From the IMG/VR virus record IMGVR_UViG_2660238462_000002: 14,514 nucleotides of DNA; one strand, 5' to 3'. Source of the stretch: a virus (taxonomy: Duplodnaviria > Heunggongvirae > Uroviricota > Caudoviricetes). The notes below the pieces were generated by a model that made no database searches, was not told the DNA's origin, and saw only the letters and a program-made list of their open reading frames with translations. The position numbers and the translations under genes are program-made. The first letter of the stretch is position 1. Every line of letters begins with the position of its first letter. Of this stretch, positions 4,756-14,514 are shown piece after piece.

Positions 4756-4808
4756 GGGCGGCAGAGCAGTCACGGAGTAAAACTGATACCGCCAAACGTC
4801 ACCAGAAA
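4756..4808 (-). ncRNA. dicF: DicF-like small regulatory RNA (about 53 nt) with intrinsic terminator hairpin and U-tract
   Basis: Minus-strand sequence TTTCTGGTGACGTTTGGCGGTATCAGTTTTACTCCGTGACTGCTCTGCCGCCC followed by TTTTT matches recalled DicF. The 3' hairpin GGGCGGCAGAGCAG/CTGCTCTGCCGCCC is followed by the U-run at plus 4751-4755. Context is between ydfC-like and dicB-like genes, as in Qin. Confidence 0.7.
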
Positions 4809-7357: not shown

Positions 7358-7428
7358 CTGACAATAGCCATATCGAATCGCTTCCGGCAACTCGTGAGTA
7401 AAAAGATTCGGTATCAGAAGAGGTGAGT

Positions 7429-8499
7429 ATGGCTAACGCCTGGCTCAGATTATGGCATGACATGCCAAATGACCCTAAGTGGCGAACAATTGCCAGGGTG
7501 TCAGGGCAGCCAATTGCAACAGTGATGGCAGTGTATATCCACCTCCTGGTGAGCGCGTCACGAAATGTCACGCGAGGTCACATTGATGTCACGACAGAAG
7601 ATTTGGCAAGTGCGCTCGACGTGACAGAAGAGGTAATTGATTCAATTTTGCAGACGATGCAGGGGCGGGTACTTGATGGTGATTTAATCACTGGATGGGA
7701 AAAACGCCAGGTGCTGAAAGAGGACAACGGCAATATTTCGCAAACCGCAAAATCTCCGGCAGAGCGCAAGAGGGCGCAGCGAGAGAGGGAAAGAAAGCGG
7801 GAACAAAATGGCGATTGTCACGGCGCGTCACGAAATGTCACGCACATGTCACGACGAGTCACGACAGATAAAGATACAGATAAAGATACAGATCAAGAAG
7901 ATCAAAACACTATGGTCCATGGCGTAAAAAACGCCACGAACCAGGCAGGGGATGTTCAGACCGTCAATCCTGGTCAGCCAGCAGGCACGACACCGGAAGC
8001 CGATTCAGCGTATGCGCTGAAAGCCGATTCGGGCGCTGTGCAGCAGGTGATGACCCCAAGGCCGGAGCAATCACACCAACTGCAGCAGCCTGAAGCCGAT
8101 TCCGCCATTCAGCGGGAAGCCGATCGGGTAGTCCCGGAAAACACCGGGCTGTCTGTGGGACGAGTGGATTATCCGGATGTGTTCGAACAGGTCTGGCGGG
8201 AGTACCCGTTGCGTGCCGGAGCAAACCCGAAGAAATCCGCTTTCAGTGCCTGGAAGGCCAGATTACGCGAGGGGGTGCCACCAGAGGCCATGCTGGATGG
8301 CGTGAGGCGTTACGCAAGATACTTGGCGGCTACCGGGAAAACGGGAACGGAATTTGTTCAGCGAGCGACGACGTTTTTTGGACCGGACCGGAATTTTGAG
8401 AACCCCTGGTTGCTCCCGGTAAGCGGCACGAACAACCAGCGTTGTGTGAATCATATTTCTGAACCGGATACCGAAATTCCACCGGGCTTCAGGGGGTAA
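7429..8499 (+). CDS. Phage replication initiation / replisome-organizer protein (O-like), 356 aa, with embedded origin iterons
   Basis: GAGG 5 nt upstream of ATG 7429. Two clusters of GTCACG direct repeats at helical-turn spacing lie inside the gene, followed by an AT-rich tandem repeat, as for lambda ori inside O. Call is by position and architecture. Confidence 0.7.
   Translation: MANAWLRLWHDMPNDPKWRTIARVSGQPIATVMAVYIHLLVSASRNVTRGHIDVTTEDLASALDVTEEVIDSILQTMQGRVLDGDLITGWEKRQVLKEDNGNISQTAKSPAERKRAQRERERKREQNGDCHGASRNVTHMSRRVTTDKDTDKDTDQEDQNTMVHGVKNATNQAGDVQTVNPGQPAGTTPEADSAYALKADSGAVQQVMTPRPEQSHQLQQPEADSAIQREADRVVPENTGLSVGRVDYPDVFEQVWREYPLRAGANPKKSAFSAWKARLREGVPPEAMLDGVRRYARYLAATGKTGTEFVQRATTFFGPDRNFENPWLLPVSGTNNQRCVNHISEPDTEIPPGFRG
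7557..7593. repeat. Iteron cluster 1: four GTCAC(G/A) direct repeats at 10-11 bp spacing
   Basis: GTCACG at 7557, 7567, 7588 and GTCACA at 7577. Shares the 19-mer GCGTCACGAAATGTCACGC with cluster 2. Confidence 0.8.
7817..7890. repeat. Iteron cluster 2 (five GTCACG repeats, 10-11 bp spacing) plus adjacent AT-rich tandem repeat GATAAAGATACA x2; putative ori
   Basis: GTCACG at 7817, 7827, 7837, 7848, 7858, followed by GATAAAGATACAGATAAAGATACAGAT at 7865-7890. Confidence 0.8.
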
Positions 8500-8539
8500 G
8501 TGTTGATTTCTGGTCATGAGGTAATTTTCAGGAGGGCTT

Positions 8540-8962
8540 GTGGCAAAAGTTTTTACACAAGAAGAGCGAGAAAAAATTAAAGGGCAGGTTGTTGAACTCG
8601 TACGCCAGAGTGGGCGTGAGACGTTACGGCAACTGGAAGTCAAGACAGGTGCGACAAGATATCTGATGAGCGTTCTCGCAAGAGAGCTGGTTGCCAGCGG
8701 CGATGTATACAACTCCGGCTACGGGTTATTCCCCTCTGAACAGGCGCGTAAGGACTGGCAAAACGCCCGCAAAAAACTCTCGAGGGCAAAGGTGAAGAAA
8801 CCTGCTGTGGTTGATCCGGACCTTATCTGGTCATCACCTGACGGAGAAATACGTCGCTACGACAGTCGCCTAAACATAATCTGTCGCGAGTGCCGGAAGA
8901 GTGAAGCTATGCAGCGTGTACTGGCTTTCTATCAGGGTAATTTTCAGGAGGCGGTACTGTGA
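8540..8962 (+). CDS. Hypothetical protein (140 aa), GTG start
   Basis: AGGAGG 4 nt upstream of GTG 8540. No recognisable motif beyond a C-terminal CRECRK. Stop abuts the next ORF. Confidence 0.55.
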   Translation: MAKVFTQEEREKIKGQVVELVRQSGRETLRQLEVKTGATRYLMSVLARELVASGDVYNSGYGLFPSEQARKDWQNARKKLSRAKVKKPAVVDPDLIWSSPDGEIRRYDSRLNIICRECRKSEAMQRVLAFYQGNFQEAVL

Positions 8963-9019
8963 GTGAAATTAGCTATCAGGCTTCAATTACCGCTGGCATT
9001 CGCATCAAAGGAGAGGAGC

Positions 9020-9376
9020 ATGGAAATAAAACCAGAGGATGAGTTAAGCAATATCGTTTTATTTCCGGTAAAAGAGGATGACCCTCGTAATCAGGTTAAT
9101 TTTCTTTATGAGCCATCGGAAAGACCATATTGTCATCACGCCTCTGTCCGGGTTGACGAAAAAGAGCGTCAGGTCCGCTGTAAAATCTGCGGTGCAGTTG
9201 TGGAGCCATTTGACTGGATGCTCTCTGTGGCGAAAAGAGAAACCAGACTGGCAGATGATGTAAGGCTCTTGCGTCAGGAGGAGCGGGAAAGGCGAAAAAA
9301 TATAGAAAAGCTAATTCAGATTGAGCGTAACGCGAAAGCGCGGATACGCAGGGCGACAAAATCCAGAACTGAATAA
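9020..9376 (+). CDS. Hypothetical zinc-ribbon protein (118 aa; 137 aa if the GTG at 8963 is used)
   Basis: GGAGAGGAG SD 5-7 nt upstream of ATG 9020. Motif YCHH...(13)...CKIC followed by a basic, coiled-coil-like tail (RLLRQEERERRKNIEKLIQIERNAKARIRR). Confidence 0.55.
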   Translation: MEIKPEDELSNIVLFPVKEDDPRNQVNFLYEPSERPYCHHASVRVDEKERQVRCKICGAVVEPFDWMLSVAKRETRLADDVRLLRQEERERRKNIEKLIQIERNAKARIRRATKSRTE

Positions 9377-9469
9377 TTAAATTTAGCTCTGTTAAAAATT
9401 TAATCCTTAACCGGAGGGATTTCTGCACCCTCAGAACATCAGGAGGCCGCCCGAAAGGGCGGTAGTTAA

Positions 9470-9652
9470 ATGCGAAAGTTTAAAATAATTATTGAAACGG
9501 GAATAGCCGGTGGAGATTTCGAGGATGAATTCGAAGTGGATGATGATGCGACGCCTGATGAAATACATGACGAAGCAAAAGATATTTTCTTTAACTACTG
9601 CAATTACTCATATCACGAAATAAAAGACGAAGAGGAAGAACAAAATGGCTGA
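9470..9652 (+). CDS. Small highly acidic protein (60 aa, about 20 Asp/Glu against 5 Lys/Arg)
   Basis: ORF in an AT-rich segment; AGGAGG at 9441-9446 is separated from the ATG by a GC hairpin (9447-9462). Net charge about -15. Confidence 0.5.
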   Translation: MRKFKIIIETGIAGGDFEDEFEVDDDATPDEIHDEAKDIFFNYCNYSYHEIKDEEEEQNG

Positions 9653-9821
9653 TTTTGGTTCAACTAAATACAACGTCAGTTTTGAAGAATGGCATGAACT
9701 GTTAATGGACTATGCAGAGTTACGTGGTGGCAGTGCTGCTGATGCTGAAGCATGGCGTGATGATTATGAAGCAGGAAAAACTCCGGTCGAAGCATATTGT
9801 GATGAGTGGGGCGATGAATGA
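9645..9821 (+). CDS. Small acidic protein (58 aa), overlapping the upstream gene (ATGGCTGA)
   Basis: Hand-translated: MADFGSTKYNVSFEEWHELLMDYAELRGGSAADAEAWRDDYEAGKTPVEAYCDEWGDE. About 16 acidic against 4 basic residues. Start overlaps the stop of the 60-aa gene and its stop overlaps the next ATG (ATGA). Confidence 0.5.
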   Translation: MADFGSTKYNVSFEEWHELLMDYAELRGGSAADAEAWRDDYEAGKTPVEAYCDEWGDE

Positions 9822-10075
9822 GCGAGGTTAATTATCAGGAAGGGCATGAAACGGCGGGGCAAGCAAAAACAGTGGCATGGCGATATCGCTACGTGAAAAA
9901 AAAGGCGTTACGGACTTTCAGGGGAAGTAGTGGTCTGGTGACTGGAAATATGTACCGAAAAAAGAGGATTGTAACGACAGGCCGAACTATGAAATTCAGG
10001 CCTTATTCACTGCCCCGCCAGTCCCGGTTACATCAGAAGAACTGGTTAAAGCTGTGCACTTTTATGAACAACTAA
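9818..10075 (+). pseudogene. Possible disrupted or frameshift-dependent ORF; the protein-like C-terminal part is in the -1 frame, ending at 10134
   Basis: The frame from ATG 9818 looks protein-like at first, then turns basic and low-complexity. The -1 frame from 9930 to 10134 reads as good protein (WSGDWKYVPKKEDCNDRPNYEIQALFTAPPVPVTSEELVKAVHFYEQLKRENPPASGNLITDSQIRQ) but has no start codon. Two A_AAA_AAG heptamers lie in the 0 frame at 9898-9904 and 9958-9964. Confidence 0.3.
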
Positions 10076-10304
10076 AACGCGAAAATCCACCAGCATCCGG
10101 AAACCTGATTACAGATTCCCAGATAAGGCAATGAGCTACCTGGCGCAGAACGGGCTGATAAGTATGGGGAATGTTTTACGATGAATATTTAGACTAAAGA
10201 GTTTGTAACGCTATGTAAGTGATTTTTTCTGGTTTAGATATTTATATGTCCGGCCAAATTGAGGTGTGTTTAAATGTAATTGCACATTGATTGTAGGAGG
10301 AATA

Positions 10305-10484
10305 ATGAAAAACGCATTGCAGTTTTTGTTTGTTGCGTTCTGGTTGTTCGTATCATGTATGCCCATCATCTTCACAGCAAGGTATATGGAAAAAGTTGAT
10401 GTTTTGATATTAATATTTGGATATATAAATGCCCTTTTTTTAGGGGTGTTCATGGCGGTCATGTGCATTGAATACTGGCGGTAA
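10305..10484 (+). CDS. Small hydrophobic membrane protein (59 aa, two predicted transmembrane segments) in an AT-rich cassette
   Basis: AGGAGG 4 nt upstream of ATG 10305. Sequence MKNALQFLFVAFWLFVSCMPIIF...ILIFGYINALFLGVFMAVMCI. Local composition is much more AT-rich than its surroundings. Confidence 0.5.
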   Translation: MKNALQFLFVAFWLFVSCMPIIFTARYMEKVDVLILIFGYINALFLGVFMAVMCIEYWR

Positions 10485-10686
10485 ATACAGCGAACGCCAT
10501 TGGTTTAGTTGGATATTTACTGTGCCGGACAAAAACGGTTTGCGGGGAAATCTTAGTTAAGTAGAATGACTGCGGGTGCTTGAGGCTATCTGTCTCAGGC
10601 ATGAACACCAAAAGGCAGATAGAGAAAAGCCCCAGTTAACATTACGCGTCCTGCAAGACGCTTAACATTAATCTGAGGCCATATCT

Positions 10687-10746
10687 ATGCGACACATAGA
10701 GATTAGCCTCTTACGGACCGAAAGGTCAAGGAGAAGCAGGCTATGA
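10687..10746 (+). CDS. Short leader ORF (19 codons) ending at the hok start codon; possible mok-like coupling ORF
   Basis: ATG 10687 with GAGG 9 nt upstream; its TGA stop overlaps the hok ATG (ATGA). Canonical mok is longer and overlaps hok, so this is tentative. Confidence 0.3.
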   Translation: MRHIEISLLRTERSRRSRL

Positions 10747-10898
10747 AGCAGCAAAAGGCGATGTTAATCGCCCTGATCGTCATCTGTTTAACCGTCATAG
10801 TGACGGCACTGGTAACGAGGAAAGACCTCTGCGAGGTACGAATCCGAACCGGCCAGACGGAGGTCGCTGTCTTCACAGCTTACGAACCTGAGGAGTAA
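10743..10898 (+). CDS. hok: Hok/Gef-family type I toxin (51 aa)
   Basis: MKQQKAMLIALIVICLTVIVTALVTRKDLCEVRIRTGQTEVAVFTAYEPEE has the Hok/Gef family signature (transmembrane helix, then RKDLCEV...TEVAVFTAYE) and appears identical or nearly so to HokD/RelF as I recall it. Absent from the ORF track because it is under 60 aa. Confidence 0.85.
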   Translation: MKQQKAMLIALIVICLTVIVTALVTRKDLCEVRIRTGQTEVAVFTAYEPEE

Positions 10899-12461: not shown

Positions 12462-12471
12462 NNNNNNNNNN
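12462..12471. other. Run of 10 ambiguous bases (N): assembly gap or masked sequence
   Basis: Seen directly in the sequence. It separates the prophage Q fragment from the asnB 3' flank. Confidence 0.99.
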
Positions 12472-12802
12472 TCTTTTTTTTCGCGATACCTTATCGGCGT
12501 TGCGGGGCGCATTATGCGTATAGAGCCTTGCAGCGTCAACCTCTTTTTCAAGGAAAATTGCTCGAAAGTGACTGTTTGGTTAGGTTGCGAACAGCGTGGC
12601 GCTATATTCGTCAATTATTGTTTACTTTGTGTTTTTTCCCACCCTACAGCCATTCTTTTGTCATACAGGATGAAATTCGGAATTTAACAATAGTGGTGGG
12701 AAATTAATCTATGAAATACTGGCCTACAGTGATGAGTTGTCAAACAGTGATGTGGCAAACCCGGAACATTTCCTTACTGCATATCAGAATCAACAAGCAC
12801 CT

Positions 12803-12849: not shown

Positions 12850-14514
12850 TTACTTATACGCCGACTGGTGAACACCAACCGCGCGACCAGACGGATCGTC
12901 CATTTTCTTGAACGCTTCATCCCATTCGATCGCTTTAGCGGAAGAACAAGCGACGGAAGGACCGCCCGGCACGCACTCAGCGGCGCTCGGAAGCGGGAAT
13001 AGTTCTTCAAAGATCTCCCGATACAAGTACGCTTCTTTAGAGGTTGGCGTGTTGTACGGGAAGCGGAAGCGGGCAGTTTCCAGTTGCTGATCAGAAACCT
13101 GCTGCGCAGCCACTTCTTTCAGGGTGTCGATCCAACTGTAACCGACGCCATCGGAGAACTGCTCTTTCTGCCGCCAGGCCACGCTTGCAGGCAGATACGC
13201 TTCAAAACATTCACGCAGGATGTGTTTTTCCATTTTGCCGTTACCGCACATTTTATCCTGTGGGTTAATACGCATCGCCACATCAAGGAATTTTTTGTCG
13301 AGGAACGGAACGCGTGCTTCCACGCCCCAGGCTGACATCGCTTTGTTGGCACGCGCGCAGTCATACATATGCAGGGCCAGCAGTTTACGCACCGTCTCTT
13401 CATGCAGTTCTTTGGCATTCGGTGCTTTGTGGAAGTAAAGATAACCGCCGAACACTTCATCAGAACCTTCACCGGACAGCACCATTTTAATGCCCATCGC
13501 CTTGATCTTACGCGACATTAAATACATCGGTGTTGAAGCGCGAATAGTGGTCACATCATAAGTTTCGATGTGGTAAATCACGTCGCGGATGGCATCCAGA
13601 CCTTCCTGTACAGTGAAGTGAATTTCGTGATGCACCGTGCCCAGATGGTTTGCCACTTCCTGGGCTGCTTTCAGATCCGGTGAACCCGGCAGACCTACAG
13701 CAAAGGAGTGTAACTGCGGCCACCAGGCTTCAGAGCGTTCCTGATCTTCCACGCGACGGGCTGCGTATTTCTTGGTGATAGCGGAAATAATTGAGGAATC
13801 CAGACCACCAGAAAGCAGCACACCGTAAGGCACATCAGACATCAGATGGCTTTTAACTGAATCTTCCAGTGCCTGACGCAGCTCGTTTTTGTCGGTCACG
13901 TTATCTTTCACCGCATCGTAGTCGAACCAGTCGCGATGATAGTAAGAACGGATTTCGCCGTCCTGGCTCCACAAATAGCTCCCCGCCGGGAACTCTTTAA
14001 TCGTGCGGCAAACTGGCACCAGCGCTTTCATTTCTGAGGCCACATACAGCTGACCGTGTTCGTCATACCCCATATACAGTGGGATGATCCCCAGATGGTC
14101 GCGACCAATCAGGTAGGCATCTTTTTCGCTGTCGTACAGTGCAAAGGCAAACATGCCCTGCAAGTCGTCGAGAAATTCCGGCCCTTTTTCCTGATACAGC
14201 GCGAGGATCACTTCACAGTCAGACCCGGTCTGGAACTGGTAACGATCGCCATATTCGGCGCGCAATGCCTGGTGGTTGTAGATTTCACCGTTTACCGCCA
14301 GTACGTGGGTTTTTTGTTGGTTGTAGAGAGGTTGCGCCCCCGCGTTAACGTCAACAATTGACAGACGTTCGTGGGCGAGAATGGCGTTATCGCTGGCATA
14401 AATACCGGACCAGTCCGGGCCACGATGACGCATCAGGCGTGACAGCTCGAGGGCTTTCTTACGCAGCTCAACTGCGTCTGTTTTGATATCGAATACGCCA
14501 AAAATTGAACACAT
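12850..14514 (-). CDS. asnB: Asparagine synthetase B (glutamine-hydrolysing), complete 554 aa
   Basis: N-terminal MCSIFGV (class II amidotransferase with Cys2), SGGLDSS PP-loop motif, full-length enterobacterial AsnB sequence. Start codon is at the last three bases of the window. Confidence 0.97.
   Translation of the reverse strand: MCSIFGVFDIKTDAVELRKKALELSRLMRHRGPDWSGIYASDNAILAHERLSIVDVNAGAQPLYNQQKTHVLAVNGEIYNHQALRAEYGDRYQFQTGSDCEVILALYQEKGPEFLDDLQGMFAFALYDSEKDAYLIGRDHLGIIPLYMGYDEHGQLYVASEMKALVPVCRTIKEFPAGSYLWSQDGEIRSYYHRDWFDYDAVKDNVTDKNELRQALEDSVKSHLMSDVPYGVLLSGGLDSSIISAITKKYAARRVEDQERSEAWWPQLHSFAVGLPGSPDLKAAQEVANHLGTVHHEIHFTVQEGLDAIRDVIYHIETYDVTTIRASTPMYLMSRKIKAMGIKMVLSGEGSDEVFGGYLYFHKAPNAKELHEETVRKLLALHMYDCARANKAMSAWGVEARVPFLDKKFLDVAMRINPQDKMCGNGKMEKHILRECFEAYLPASVAWRQKEQFSDGVGYSWIDTLKEVAAQQVSDQQLETARFRFPYNTPTSKEAYLYREIFEELFPLPSAAECVPGGPSVACSSAKAIEWDEAFKKMDDPSGRAVGVHQSAYK

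Follow-up and report, generated by a model that had tools for sequence, protein, structure and literature searches.

A probable ren/nin-like accessory segment in the cargo slot between the replication gene and hok of a Qin/Rac-like lambdoid prophage

Between the replication gene and the hok locus of the prophage described here there is a block of six small open reading frames, which we designate A to F. The window analysed (the whole 14,514-nucleotide stretch of IMG/VR virus record IMGVR_UViG_2660238462_000002) raises the question of whether these genes together constitute a new toxin-antitoxin, abortive-infection or defence system, as an initial annotation had proposed, or whether they are separate accessory genes that happen to share a slot. 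We find that the genes of the block belong to phage gene families that have already been catalogued, and that they do not add up to one novel toxin-antitoxin or defence system. The block is very probably a segment of ren/nin-like accessory genes within the early rightward operon of a lambdoid prophage of the Qin/Rac type, assembled as a mosaic of independent small genes. The reading frames themselves were all recovered as first described (a 140-aa protein A, a zinc-ribbon protein B, overlapping acidic proteins C and D, a disrupted E and an AT-rich F; Table 1), and the reported dip in GC content is also real (0.36-0.41 in the block).

Table 1. Features of the slot and its boundaries, with positions in the window
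Feature	Position	Strand	Basis and remarks
Replication initiator, phage replisome organizer, O-like	7423..8499	+	Left boundary of the slot
Exact 16-nt direct repeat GGTAATTTTCAGGAGG, copy 1	8520..8535	+	Repeat search; RBS source for gene A
Gene A, 140-aa basic protein, DUF977 / 'LygF', predicted Ren-family winged helix	8540..8962	+	Pfam, PHROGs, position
16-nt direct repeat, copy 2	8936..8951	+	Repeat search; within the 3' end of gene A
Gene B, 118 aa, phrog_1621 nin-region family	9020..9376	+	PHROGs, E = 3e-56
Leader of gene C: AGGAGG, then 7-bp GNRA hairpin (9446-9463), then ATG	9439..9469	+	RNA fold
Gene C, 60-aa acidic protein, DUF7167 / phrog_1997	9470..9652	+	Pfam, PHROGs
Gene D, 58-aa acidic protein, phrog_519	9645..9821	+	PHROGs, E = 4.5e-23; 8-nt overlap with C
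E, pseudogene of a phrog_660-type early gene	9818..10134	+	Frame comparison; ATGA overlap with D
F, putative 59-aa ORF, two hydrophobic helices	10305..10484	+	ORF from ATG 10305
hokD/sok locus	10574..10898	+	Right boundary of the slot

The element around the block is a lambdoid prophage of the Qin/Rac-like kind. Annotated DNA of Escherichia coli CFT073 and many other genomes matches the block at 99.8-99.9% identity. The product of the gene at the left boundary matches phrog_3729 ('replication initiation protein', E = 1.8e-256) and carries the RefSeq name 'phage replisome organizer'. Tandem repeats of 10-12 nt are located within this gene at 7816-7898. At the right boundary, sok is found at 10574-10745 (Rfam, 106.7 bits) and hokD at 10743-10898, followed by rem and ydfU, after which relatives such as CFT073 carry rusA and Q. 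A run of 10 Ns (12463-12472) interrupts the window ahead of the expected rusA/Q position. We considered a prophage truncated against asnB and dropped this idea, the run being a scaffold join or mask.

In K-12, the Qin prophage has the same slot, reaching from the immunity/replication side to hokD and filled by dicC-ydfX-ydfW-flxA-ydfV-relBE. The initial annotation was right in placing relBE in this slot of the K-12 Qin. K-12 has lost A to F together with the replication gene, whereas the window lacks relBE, flxA and ydfV. The gene set had also been called different from that of Qin, which does not hold throughout: in a Qin prophage of strain K_EC180, degraded versions of A, C and E precede ydfW-flxA-ydfV-relB.

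There are 81 distinct versions of the slot from A to hok among the IMG/VR contigs and they range from 1.2 to 5.3 kb in length, which bears out the earlier description of a variable accessory site. In this sample, which consists of the best 80 matches per query and is therefore biased, the combinations are BCDF (26 slots), none of B, C, D and F (17), CDF (12), B (10), BCD (7), BC (4), CD (4) and BF (1), and A is present without B in 33 of the 81. The other cargo found in relatives includes relBE, SAM methyltransferases, QueH, DUF4406, an XF1762-family gene and an sce7726-family gene, the last of which matches a PADLOC candidate model. In strain K_EC180 and among the IMG/VR contigs, longer slot versions carry relBE alongside C, D, E and F. 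The position is indeed of the cargo type that had been suggested, and the slot is a genuine hot spot for variable cargo. The block provides a worked example of a hot spot of this kind, located between a ren-like gene and hok, in which the small genes described here take turns with relBE, methyltransferases, QueH and a candidate defence gene.

The genes do not travel as a unit. Among 5,426 complete E. coli genomes, in which a piece was counted if at least 80% of it was present, A occurs in 3,924 (72%), while B (1,679), C-D (1,750), E (1,523) and the F region (1,554) each occur in 28-32% and the whole block in only 942 (17%). At 99% identity or above, the allele of A is found in only 50 records as opposed to 725-1,148 for B and F, which indicates that these genes have separate histories. 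The proposal that the block is one module is therefore contradicted by the same slot in relatives, where the genes assort independently in E. coli. Each small early gene would then represent its own recombination module, and the block would stay together only through linkage and recombination at gene boundaries.

This arrangement resembles the nin region of lambdoid phages (ninB-ninI). The block occupies the same position and strand of the delayed-early PR operon, between the replication genes and Q, and is likewise composed of small, presumably non-essential genes whose stops and starts overlap, with a mosaic content that varies among relatives. In addition, homologues of B are found in the nin region itself, between RusA and Q in Serratia prophages (RusA-B-Q) and between NinH and Q in Yersinia prophages (NinH-B-x-Q), in both cases without A, C or D. 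The lambda nin genes are non-essential (PMC10695390), and the frequent absence and decay of the block genes suggest that these are dispensable as well. However, hok/sok, rem and ydfU separate the block from the rusA/Q position in this prophage. A BLAST comparison of A to F with the lambda exo-xis and nin proteins gave a sole match, that between A and Ren.

In the block, crude consensus scans of the + strand predict neither an internal promoter nor a terminator, and they find no promoter-like site on this strand between 8300 and 11000. Because the block and the replication gene also share a strand, the block is expected to be silent under the prophage repressor. After induction it would be cotranscribed with the replication gene, and each product would act singly on host or competitor targets in early lytic development.

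Gene A encodes, as judged from its sequence, a winged-helix protein of the Ren family and it stands in the ren position. It matches Pfam DUF977 (E = 4.2e-28; 98.5 bits with a cutoff of 22.1) and, over residues 1-139 and therefore its full length, phrog_142 'Ren-like exclusion protein' (E = 2.3e-47), a family that lambda Ren also matches (E = 1.6e-41). The winged helix is predicted in the N-terminal half. Near the C-terminus is the motif I/V..ECR.S.AM.RVLA.Y, which is shared with Ren (60% identity over 20 aa). The Ren family, related to DUF977, also takes in Rac ydaW ('LygF'). The name 'LygF' is just a Salmonella locus name. Like ren, which follows P in lambda, the gene comes immediately after the replication gene of the PR operon. 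There are differences, in that Ren, with 96 amino acids, is shorter than the 140-aa product of A, and the pairwise similarity does not extend beyond about 20 residues. Of the 125 nucleotide changes among its variants, 82 are at third codon positions. A sequence search of the PDB gave only noise. The anti-Rex role of lambda Ren was reportedly described by Toothman and Herskowitz in 1980, and ren and RexAB are said to be the subject of later work by Thomason and Court in 2022. By analogy, the product of this gene would relieve exclusion of the Rex type in the manner of lambda Ren. The sole DUF977 paper found in our literature search, the Fido paper, describes this domain as a winged helix, and a search by RefSeq protein accessions returned no match.

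The assignment of A removes one part of the earlier claim that none of these genes can be placed in a family. C belongs to DUF7167, and B, D and E fall into PHROGs 1621, 519 and 660, respectively. Homology to known accessory genes, which had been named in advance as evidence against a new system, is present only in part, namely in A as a replication-adjacent homologue of Ren.

Gene B is a stand-alone nin-region gene for a zinc-ribbon/coiled-coil protein. It could start at ATG 9020 (118 aa) or at GTG 8963 (137 aa), and the residue encoded by ATG 9020 is the first residue in all 25 aligned family members. Its protein begins with a disordered N-terminus, followed by a C-x-H...C-x2-C zinc ribbon and then by a basic helix of 55 residues. 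Residues C38, H40, C54 and C57 are invariant, as is the C-terminal helix, in 25 homologues from at least eight genera, and the changes among variants are predominantly synonymous (40 versus 17 nonsynonymous). The match to Pfam Zn_Ribbon_TF is under the Pfam cutoff. A sequence search of the PDB yielded noise, and a Foldseek search with the AF2 model (pLDDT 74.5) returned only generic TFIIB-type zinc ribbons with E > 0.3. Perhaps the invariant basic helix would serve to attach the protein to a conserved partner in the host or to nucleic acid.

Genes C and D form the only consistent linkage in the block. They are never apart in the sample of E. coli and IMG/VR loci, where even the four 'BC' slots keep a truncated D, and this linkage is broken in other genera. 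C matches DUF7167 (E = 7.9e-15) and phrog_1997 (E = 9e-31), and a literature search on DUF7167 found no paper. Its variable sites favour the third codon position (24 of 38). A search of genome contigs recovered only three loci, and a relative with 37% identity is present, without D, on a phage-like contig from Bacilli. The family of D comprises 82 clusters among 1.84 billion representatives. D is found without C in Enterobacter, where it lies behind an Ead/Ea22 gene, near xis/int or after O-P. Each of the two genes thus occurs in the absence of the other, D in Enterobacter and C on the Bacilli contig, and the pair is not obligate. Under the mosaic reading, their products would work as acidic decoys or binders. 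Nevertheless, the overlap and the unusual charge that the two have in common are compatible with at least a two-gene functional unit. Together with the phrog_1621 zinc-ribbon protein, DUF7167 and phrog_519 are three widespread families without a described function to which the block draws attention, and the C-D pair or B is carried by about 30% of complete E. coli genomes.

These features cause us to consider whether C and D, possibly with B, represent a small anti-defence or host-takeover module whose products are co-translated mimics or decoys of nucleic acids, aimed at a host or prophage immunity protein while early lytic growth is under way. The proteins have net charges of -15 (C) and -12 (D) and pI values of 4.05 each, an acidity that they share with DNA mimics of the Ocr/ArdA type. 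The 8-nt overlap of the two genes, which are always linked in E. coli, fits translational coupling. C brings its own conserved SD-hairpin-ATG leader, which accompanies it in Shigella flexneri and in the Stx phage ArgO145, where a different gene lies upstream. Moreover, B-C-D switch as a set between the PR and PL early operons of E. coli phages, both of which are typical sites of counter-defence genes. Methyltransferases are frequent neighbours within the slot, and relatives of D are known from an Erwinia phage also. However, acidity by itself is weak evidence. Sequence searches of the PDB with C and D gave only noise, and the AF2 model of D (pLDDT 86) is a compact three-helix bundle of 58 residues, not an elongated DNA-like surface, for which Foldseek returned no PDB structure and, from BFVD, phage proteins that are all uncharacterised. 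Both families are listed as 'unknown function' in PHROGs, internal stops interrupt 5 of the 15 full-length variants of C, and the exceptions from Enterobacter and Bacilli speak against a fixed pair. We therefore regard such a module as unlikely. We are equally sceptical of its extended form, in which C-D and the SD-hairpin leader are an anti-defence or host-takeover module shuttled between lambdoid early operons and B is a nin-region factor that directs its near-invariant basic helix against a conserved host protein. If C-D were a true counter-defence pair, this would provide an annotation for thousands of prophages, Stx phages included.

Within the mosaic of independent accessory genes, E is a fossil. 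Its A8 run at 9896-9903 contains a frameshift, a TAG stands at 9928-9930, and RefSeq (PGAP) flags E as 'frameshifted; internal stop'. A programmed -1 frameshift at A_AAA_AAG was considered and ruled out, the TAG following eight codons later. An intact relative of 121 aa in O157:H7 strain LSU61 matches phrog_660 (E = 1.5e-46).

F is a questionable open reading frame with no sign of purifying selection. The initial annotation described an AT-rich gene for a two-helix membrane protein, and the hydrophobic reading frame is indeed there, although it starts at ATG 10305 rather than 10266 and its coding status is doubtful. One possibility is that F encodes a genuine small protein of the inner membrane, for instance a superinfection-exclusion factor, a holin-like protein or a type I-like toxin, which was missed by PGAP, whose annotation is 'None' in the RefSeq genomes listed. 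Its RBS, taGGAGGaataATG, is strong and near the consensus at ideal spacing, the frame has two hydrophobic helices and a GRAVY of 1.31, and hok/sok adjoins. Furthermore, the frame is open in all 86 IMG/VR copies (nine distinct variants), and the region occurs at 95% identity or more in the 1,554 complete genomes counted above. However, all eight changes among the variants are nonsynonymous, with no excess at third positions, and the relatives are confined to Escherichia and Shigella, nearly all being at least 91% identical and many truncated or recombinant. No match to F was found in Pfam, PHROGs, PADLOC or NCBIfam, an Rfam scan revealed no RNA, antisense or otherwise, overlapping it, and hydrophobic frames can arise from AT-rich composition alone (GC 0.37 here). 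We thus consider it quite improbable that F encodes such a protein. A reverse-strand ORF of 85 aa in the same area (10211-10468; 'hornerin' in two phage records) was rejected as spurious, being of low complexity and AT-rich and matching no family.

With E dead and F doubtful, the proposal of a new toxin-antitoxin, abortive-infection or defence system finds no model match for any gene. Neither A to F nor the reverse-strand ORF matches PADLOC-DB 2.0 at E <= 0.1, and A to F match nothing in NCBIfam or among the Pfam toxin-antitoxin families. Neither A-B nor C-D shows the obligate pairing of a type II toxin-antitoxin system, given that A occurs without B, B alone and D without C. The notion that A and B are a new toxin-antitoxin or abortive-infection pair, with a DNA-binding antitoxin and a zinc-ribbon toxin or the reverse, deserves hardly any credence: the two are neighbours on the same strand, the GTG start of B abuts the stop codon of A and a winged-helix DNA-binding domain as in A is found in many antitoxins, but A is a Ren-family member that greatly outnumbers B and often fills the slot without it, B is solitary in the Serratia and Yersinia nin regions and, in L010 and ArgO145, lies behind an Ea22-like gene with A absent, no promoter-like site precedes the pair in the crude scan, and the tight coupling claimed at first is lost with the family start of B, which lies 57 nt 3' of the stop of A.

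Besides the nin region, the independent genes of the block have a likeness to the exo-xis/ea region (ea22, ea8.5, orf60a/61/63) that lambda and the Stx phages carry. In ArgO145, B-C-D are located in the leftward early region among Ead/Ea22-like genes, and the gene that occupies the position of E there matches Ead_Ea22 (E = 3.5e-39). The link of the block genes to Ea22 consists only of adjacency, as for D in Enterobacter, and rare fusion. However, B, C, D and E themselves match neither Pfam Ead_Ea22 (PF13935) nor the lambda exo-xis proteins. Ea22 has been reported to be prolysogenic (PMC7093339). In the rare fusion proteins, the N-terminus and coiled coil of Ea22 are joined directly to B.

There are six small ORFs (A-F) on the plus strand between the replication gene and hokD/sok, and the initial annotation described them largely correctly. 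It proposed them as the best candidate for an undescribed toxin-antitoxin, abortive-infection or anti-defence system, with no gene assignable to a family. However, A belongs to Pfam DUF977 and phrog_142, C belongs to DUF7167 and phrog_1997, and B, D and E are also represented in PHROGs. RefSeq labels A 'DUF977 family protein', C 'DUF7167 family protein', B and D 'hypothetical' and E a pseudogene, and has no annotation at F. With its DNA and gene models in RefSeq, Pfam and PHROGs, the block is already known. The genes assort separately and none of A-F has a match in PADLOC, NCBIfam or the toxin and antitoxin families of Pfam, which leaves the reading as a new system unsupported. The block most likely consists of independent accessory genes of the ren, nin and ea type, and the remaining novelty lies in the function of the B, C and D families.

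Features of the window, with the number of complete E. coli genomes (of 5,426) in which at least 80% of a piece is present
Feature	Position	Strand	Description	Genomes
DicF sRNA	4756-4807	-	Rfam, 76.7 bits	
Tandem 10-12-nt repeats	7816-7898		TGTCACGACA x5; ACAGATAAAGAT x2.9; inside replisome-organizer gene	
16-nt direct repeat	8520-8535; 8936-8951		GGTAATTTTCAGGAGG, exact; brackets A	
16-nt repeat, third copy	9827-9842		degenerate	
Whole block	8540-10500			942
A	8540-8962	+	140 aa; GTG start, AGGAGG ahead	3,924
B	ATG 9020	+	118 aa; preceded by AAAGGAGAGGAGC	1,679
C leader	9439-9469	+	AGGAGG, 7-bp GNRA hairpin (9446-9463), ATG	
C	9470-9652	+	60 aa	
D	9645-9821	+	58 aa; 8-nt overlap with C	
C-D				1,750
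E	9818-10134	+	broken; ATGA overlap with D	1,523
F	ATG 10305	+	59 aa; taGGAGGaata ahead	1,554 (F region)
Reverse-strand ORF	10211-10468	-	85 aa; overlaps F; 'hornerin' in two phage GenBank records	
sok antitoxin RNA	10574-10745		Rfam, 106.7 bits	
Run of 10 N	12463-12472		between start of post-ydfU gene and asnB-bearing segment	
asnB	12850-14514	-	complete	

At identities of at least 99%, the window's A allele occurs in only 50 records, compared with 725-1,148 for B and F, and thus the history of A differs from that of its neighbours. There are 81 distinct versions of the slot from A to hok, 1.2-5.3 kb long, in IMG/VR contigs (best 80 matches per query). By their content of B, C, D and F, these are BCDF (26), none (17), CDF (12), B (10), BCD (7), BC (4), CD (4) and BF (1). 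The leftward early region of Stx phage ArgO145 carries B, an extra 70-aa gene, C, D and then an Ea22-like gene, and a locus with another replication-module background (L010) has an Ea22-like gene followed by B-C-D-F without the DUF977 gene. Beyond E. coli the linkage among the genes is lost. B is found by itself both in Serratia, where RusA and Q flank it, and in Yersinia, where it lies between NinH and Q. This assortment fits mosaic modules of the nin and ea type, not a multi-gene system. The slot varies among relatives as anticipated, although its genes do not move as a unit.

The slot was also correctly suspected to be a cargo site, because relBE, SAM methyltransferases, QueH and an sce7726-family gene occur there in relatives. 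Alternative contents further include DUF551, DUF4014, DUF4406, an XF1762-family gene, an ISNCY transposase and Ea22-like genes. The relB-relE genes in alternative slots are presumably the K-12 sequences, and relB is confirmed by the annotation of K_EC180. The sce7726-family protein is present in two distinct versions (loci L155 and L157; NCBIfam E 3e-56) and matches the PADLOC candidate model PDLC02989 (E 1e-28), while a 298-aa ORF in the L119 slot has no family match. K-12 Qin reads dicC-ydfX-ydfW-flxA-ydfV-relBE-hokD and lacks all of A-F. The Qin prophage of K_EC180 is an intermediate form, with a decayed A, a methyltransferase, decayed C and E, an IS and then ydfW-flxA-ydfV-relB. The K-12 relBE-hokD slot, the lambdoid nin region, the exo-xis/ea region and, for A, lambda ren are the closest known counterparts of the block.

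C and D are the sole consistent pair within E. coli, yet the pairing is not obligate. Their computed net charges are -15 and -12, with a pI of 4.05 for both, and the overlapping reading frames of C, D and E suggest translational coupling. There are 23 nt between the Shine-Dalgarno sequence of C and its ATG, and in the RNA fold this gap is occupied by the hairpin, which may bring the two close together. The leader is kept with C in ArgO145 and S. flexneri. D represents phrog_519, a small family (82 clusters among 1.84 billion representatives) of mostly stand-alone proteins of 50-65 aa, and its model is a three-helix bundle (pLDDT 86) whose only structural matches are uncharacterised phage proteins. 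A literature search found no paper on DUF7167. It is unlikely that the two form a true module for counter-defence or takeover, since the linkage breaks: in Enterobacter, D directly follows an Ead/Ea22 gene without C, near xis/int or after O-P, and a Bacilli phage-like contig has a C relative (37% identity) without D.

To judge by its sequence, E derives from a phrog_660 gene that has decayed. Relative to the frame matching intact relatives, it carries a frameshift in an A8 run (9896-9903) and a TAG (9928-9930), and the broken allele is found at identities of at least 99% in 621 complete-genome records. The frameshift falls in a dnaX-type slippery heptamer (A_AAA_AAG). Programmed -1 frameshifting was rejected, as the slip restores the ancestral frame but meets the TAG 8 codons on.

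F begins at 10305 and not, as first placed, at 10266. Its product would be hydrophobic (GRAVY 1.31), and no family match was found for it. That F is a real membrane protein is quite improbable, as all 8 of its variable sites are nonsynonymous, without the third-position excess clear in A, B and C, and its relatives, nearly all at least 91% identical, are confined to Escherichia and Shigella. GC content is 0.37 in C and F versus 0.51 in A. Family support was not found for the overlapping 'hornerin' ORF, which has the look of an annotation artefact caused by AT-rich sequence.

A matches DUF977 (E 4e-28) and, over its full length, phrog_142 'Ren-like exclusion protein' (E 2e-47), a profile also matched by lambda Ren (E 2e-41). 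The C-terminal motif ECR.S.AM.RVLA.Y is common to both proteins, and replication genes directly precede both A in the window and ren in lambda. Thus, by sequence and position, A is a homologue of Ren that occupies the ren slot. Profile methods have tied DUF977 to winged-helix DNA-binding folds (PMC2686095). Each exact copy of the 16-nt repeat provides AGGAGG for the next start (GTG 8540 and GTG 8963). If the two copies recombined, A would be removed cleanly, and therefore the repeat looks like a module-boundary sequence.

B belongs to phrog_1621 (function unannotated). Its 25 homologues, from Escherichia, Klebsiella, Kluyvera, Salmonella, Serratia, Erwinia, Yersinia and Pluralibacter, keep C38, H40, C54 and C57 together with a helix, LR.EE..RR.NIEKLIQIERNAKARIR, that hardly varies. 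In the AlphaFold model (pLDDT 74.5) the N-terminus is disordered and is followed by a zinc ribbon and a single 55-residue helix, and PDB sequence and structure searches returned only generic zinc ribbons. In the alignment of these homologues (A1), the N-terminal third varies freely while the C-terminal helix is near-invariant from Escherichia to Serratia, Erwinia and Yersinia, which hints at a conserved binding partner. In rare proteins (such as the fusion P0002), an Ea22 N-terminus and coiled coil are joined directly to B. The tight coupling of A and B read initially does not hold, the B-family start lying at ATG 9020 in all 25 aligned homologues, and a toxin-antitoxin or abortive-infection pair made of the two is barely credible.

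A-F all share the strand of the replication gene, and a crude consensus scan found no internal plus-strand promoter or terminator before the terminator past hok. Thus, the S24 repressor probably keeps the block off in the lysogen, and induction would allow its transcription from PR, on the pattern of ren and the nin genes in lambda. A would act like Ren, and B, C and D are each predicted to bind a target in the host or in a competitor.

CFT073, FDAARGOS_536 and many other E. coli genomes match the block at 99.8-99.9% identity, and two sequenced phage records do so at 98.5%. The window has the gene order of a Qin/Rac-like lambdoid prophage, with int, xis, exo, ydfD, dicB, DicF and ydfABC on one flank, followed by the S24 repressor, a Cro-like gene, a YdaT-like gene, the replisome organizer, A-F, hokD/sok, a rem-like ORF and ydfU. 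The DicF and sok RNAs are as expected in a Qin-type prophage. The run of 10 N is a scaffold join or masked stretch, and the junction across it matched none of the complete E. coli genomes. The rightmost 2 kb of the window may therefore not adjoin the prophage. Truncation of the prophage at asnB was dropped as a candidate, since this run intervenes. The tandem repeats within the replisome-organizer gene are probably origin iterons, by comparison with lambda O.
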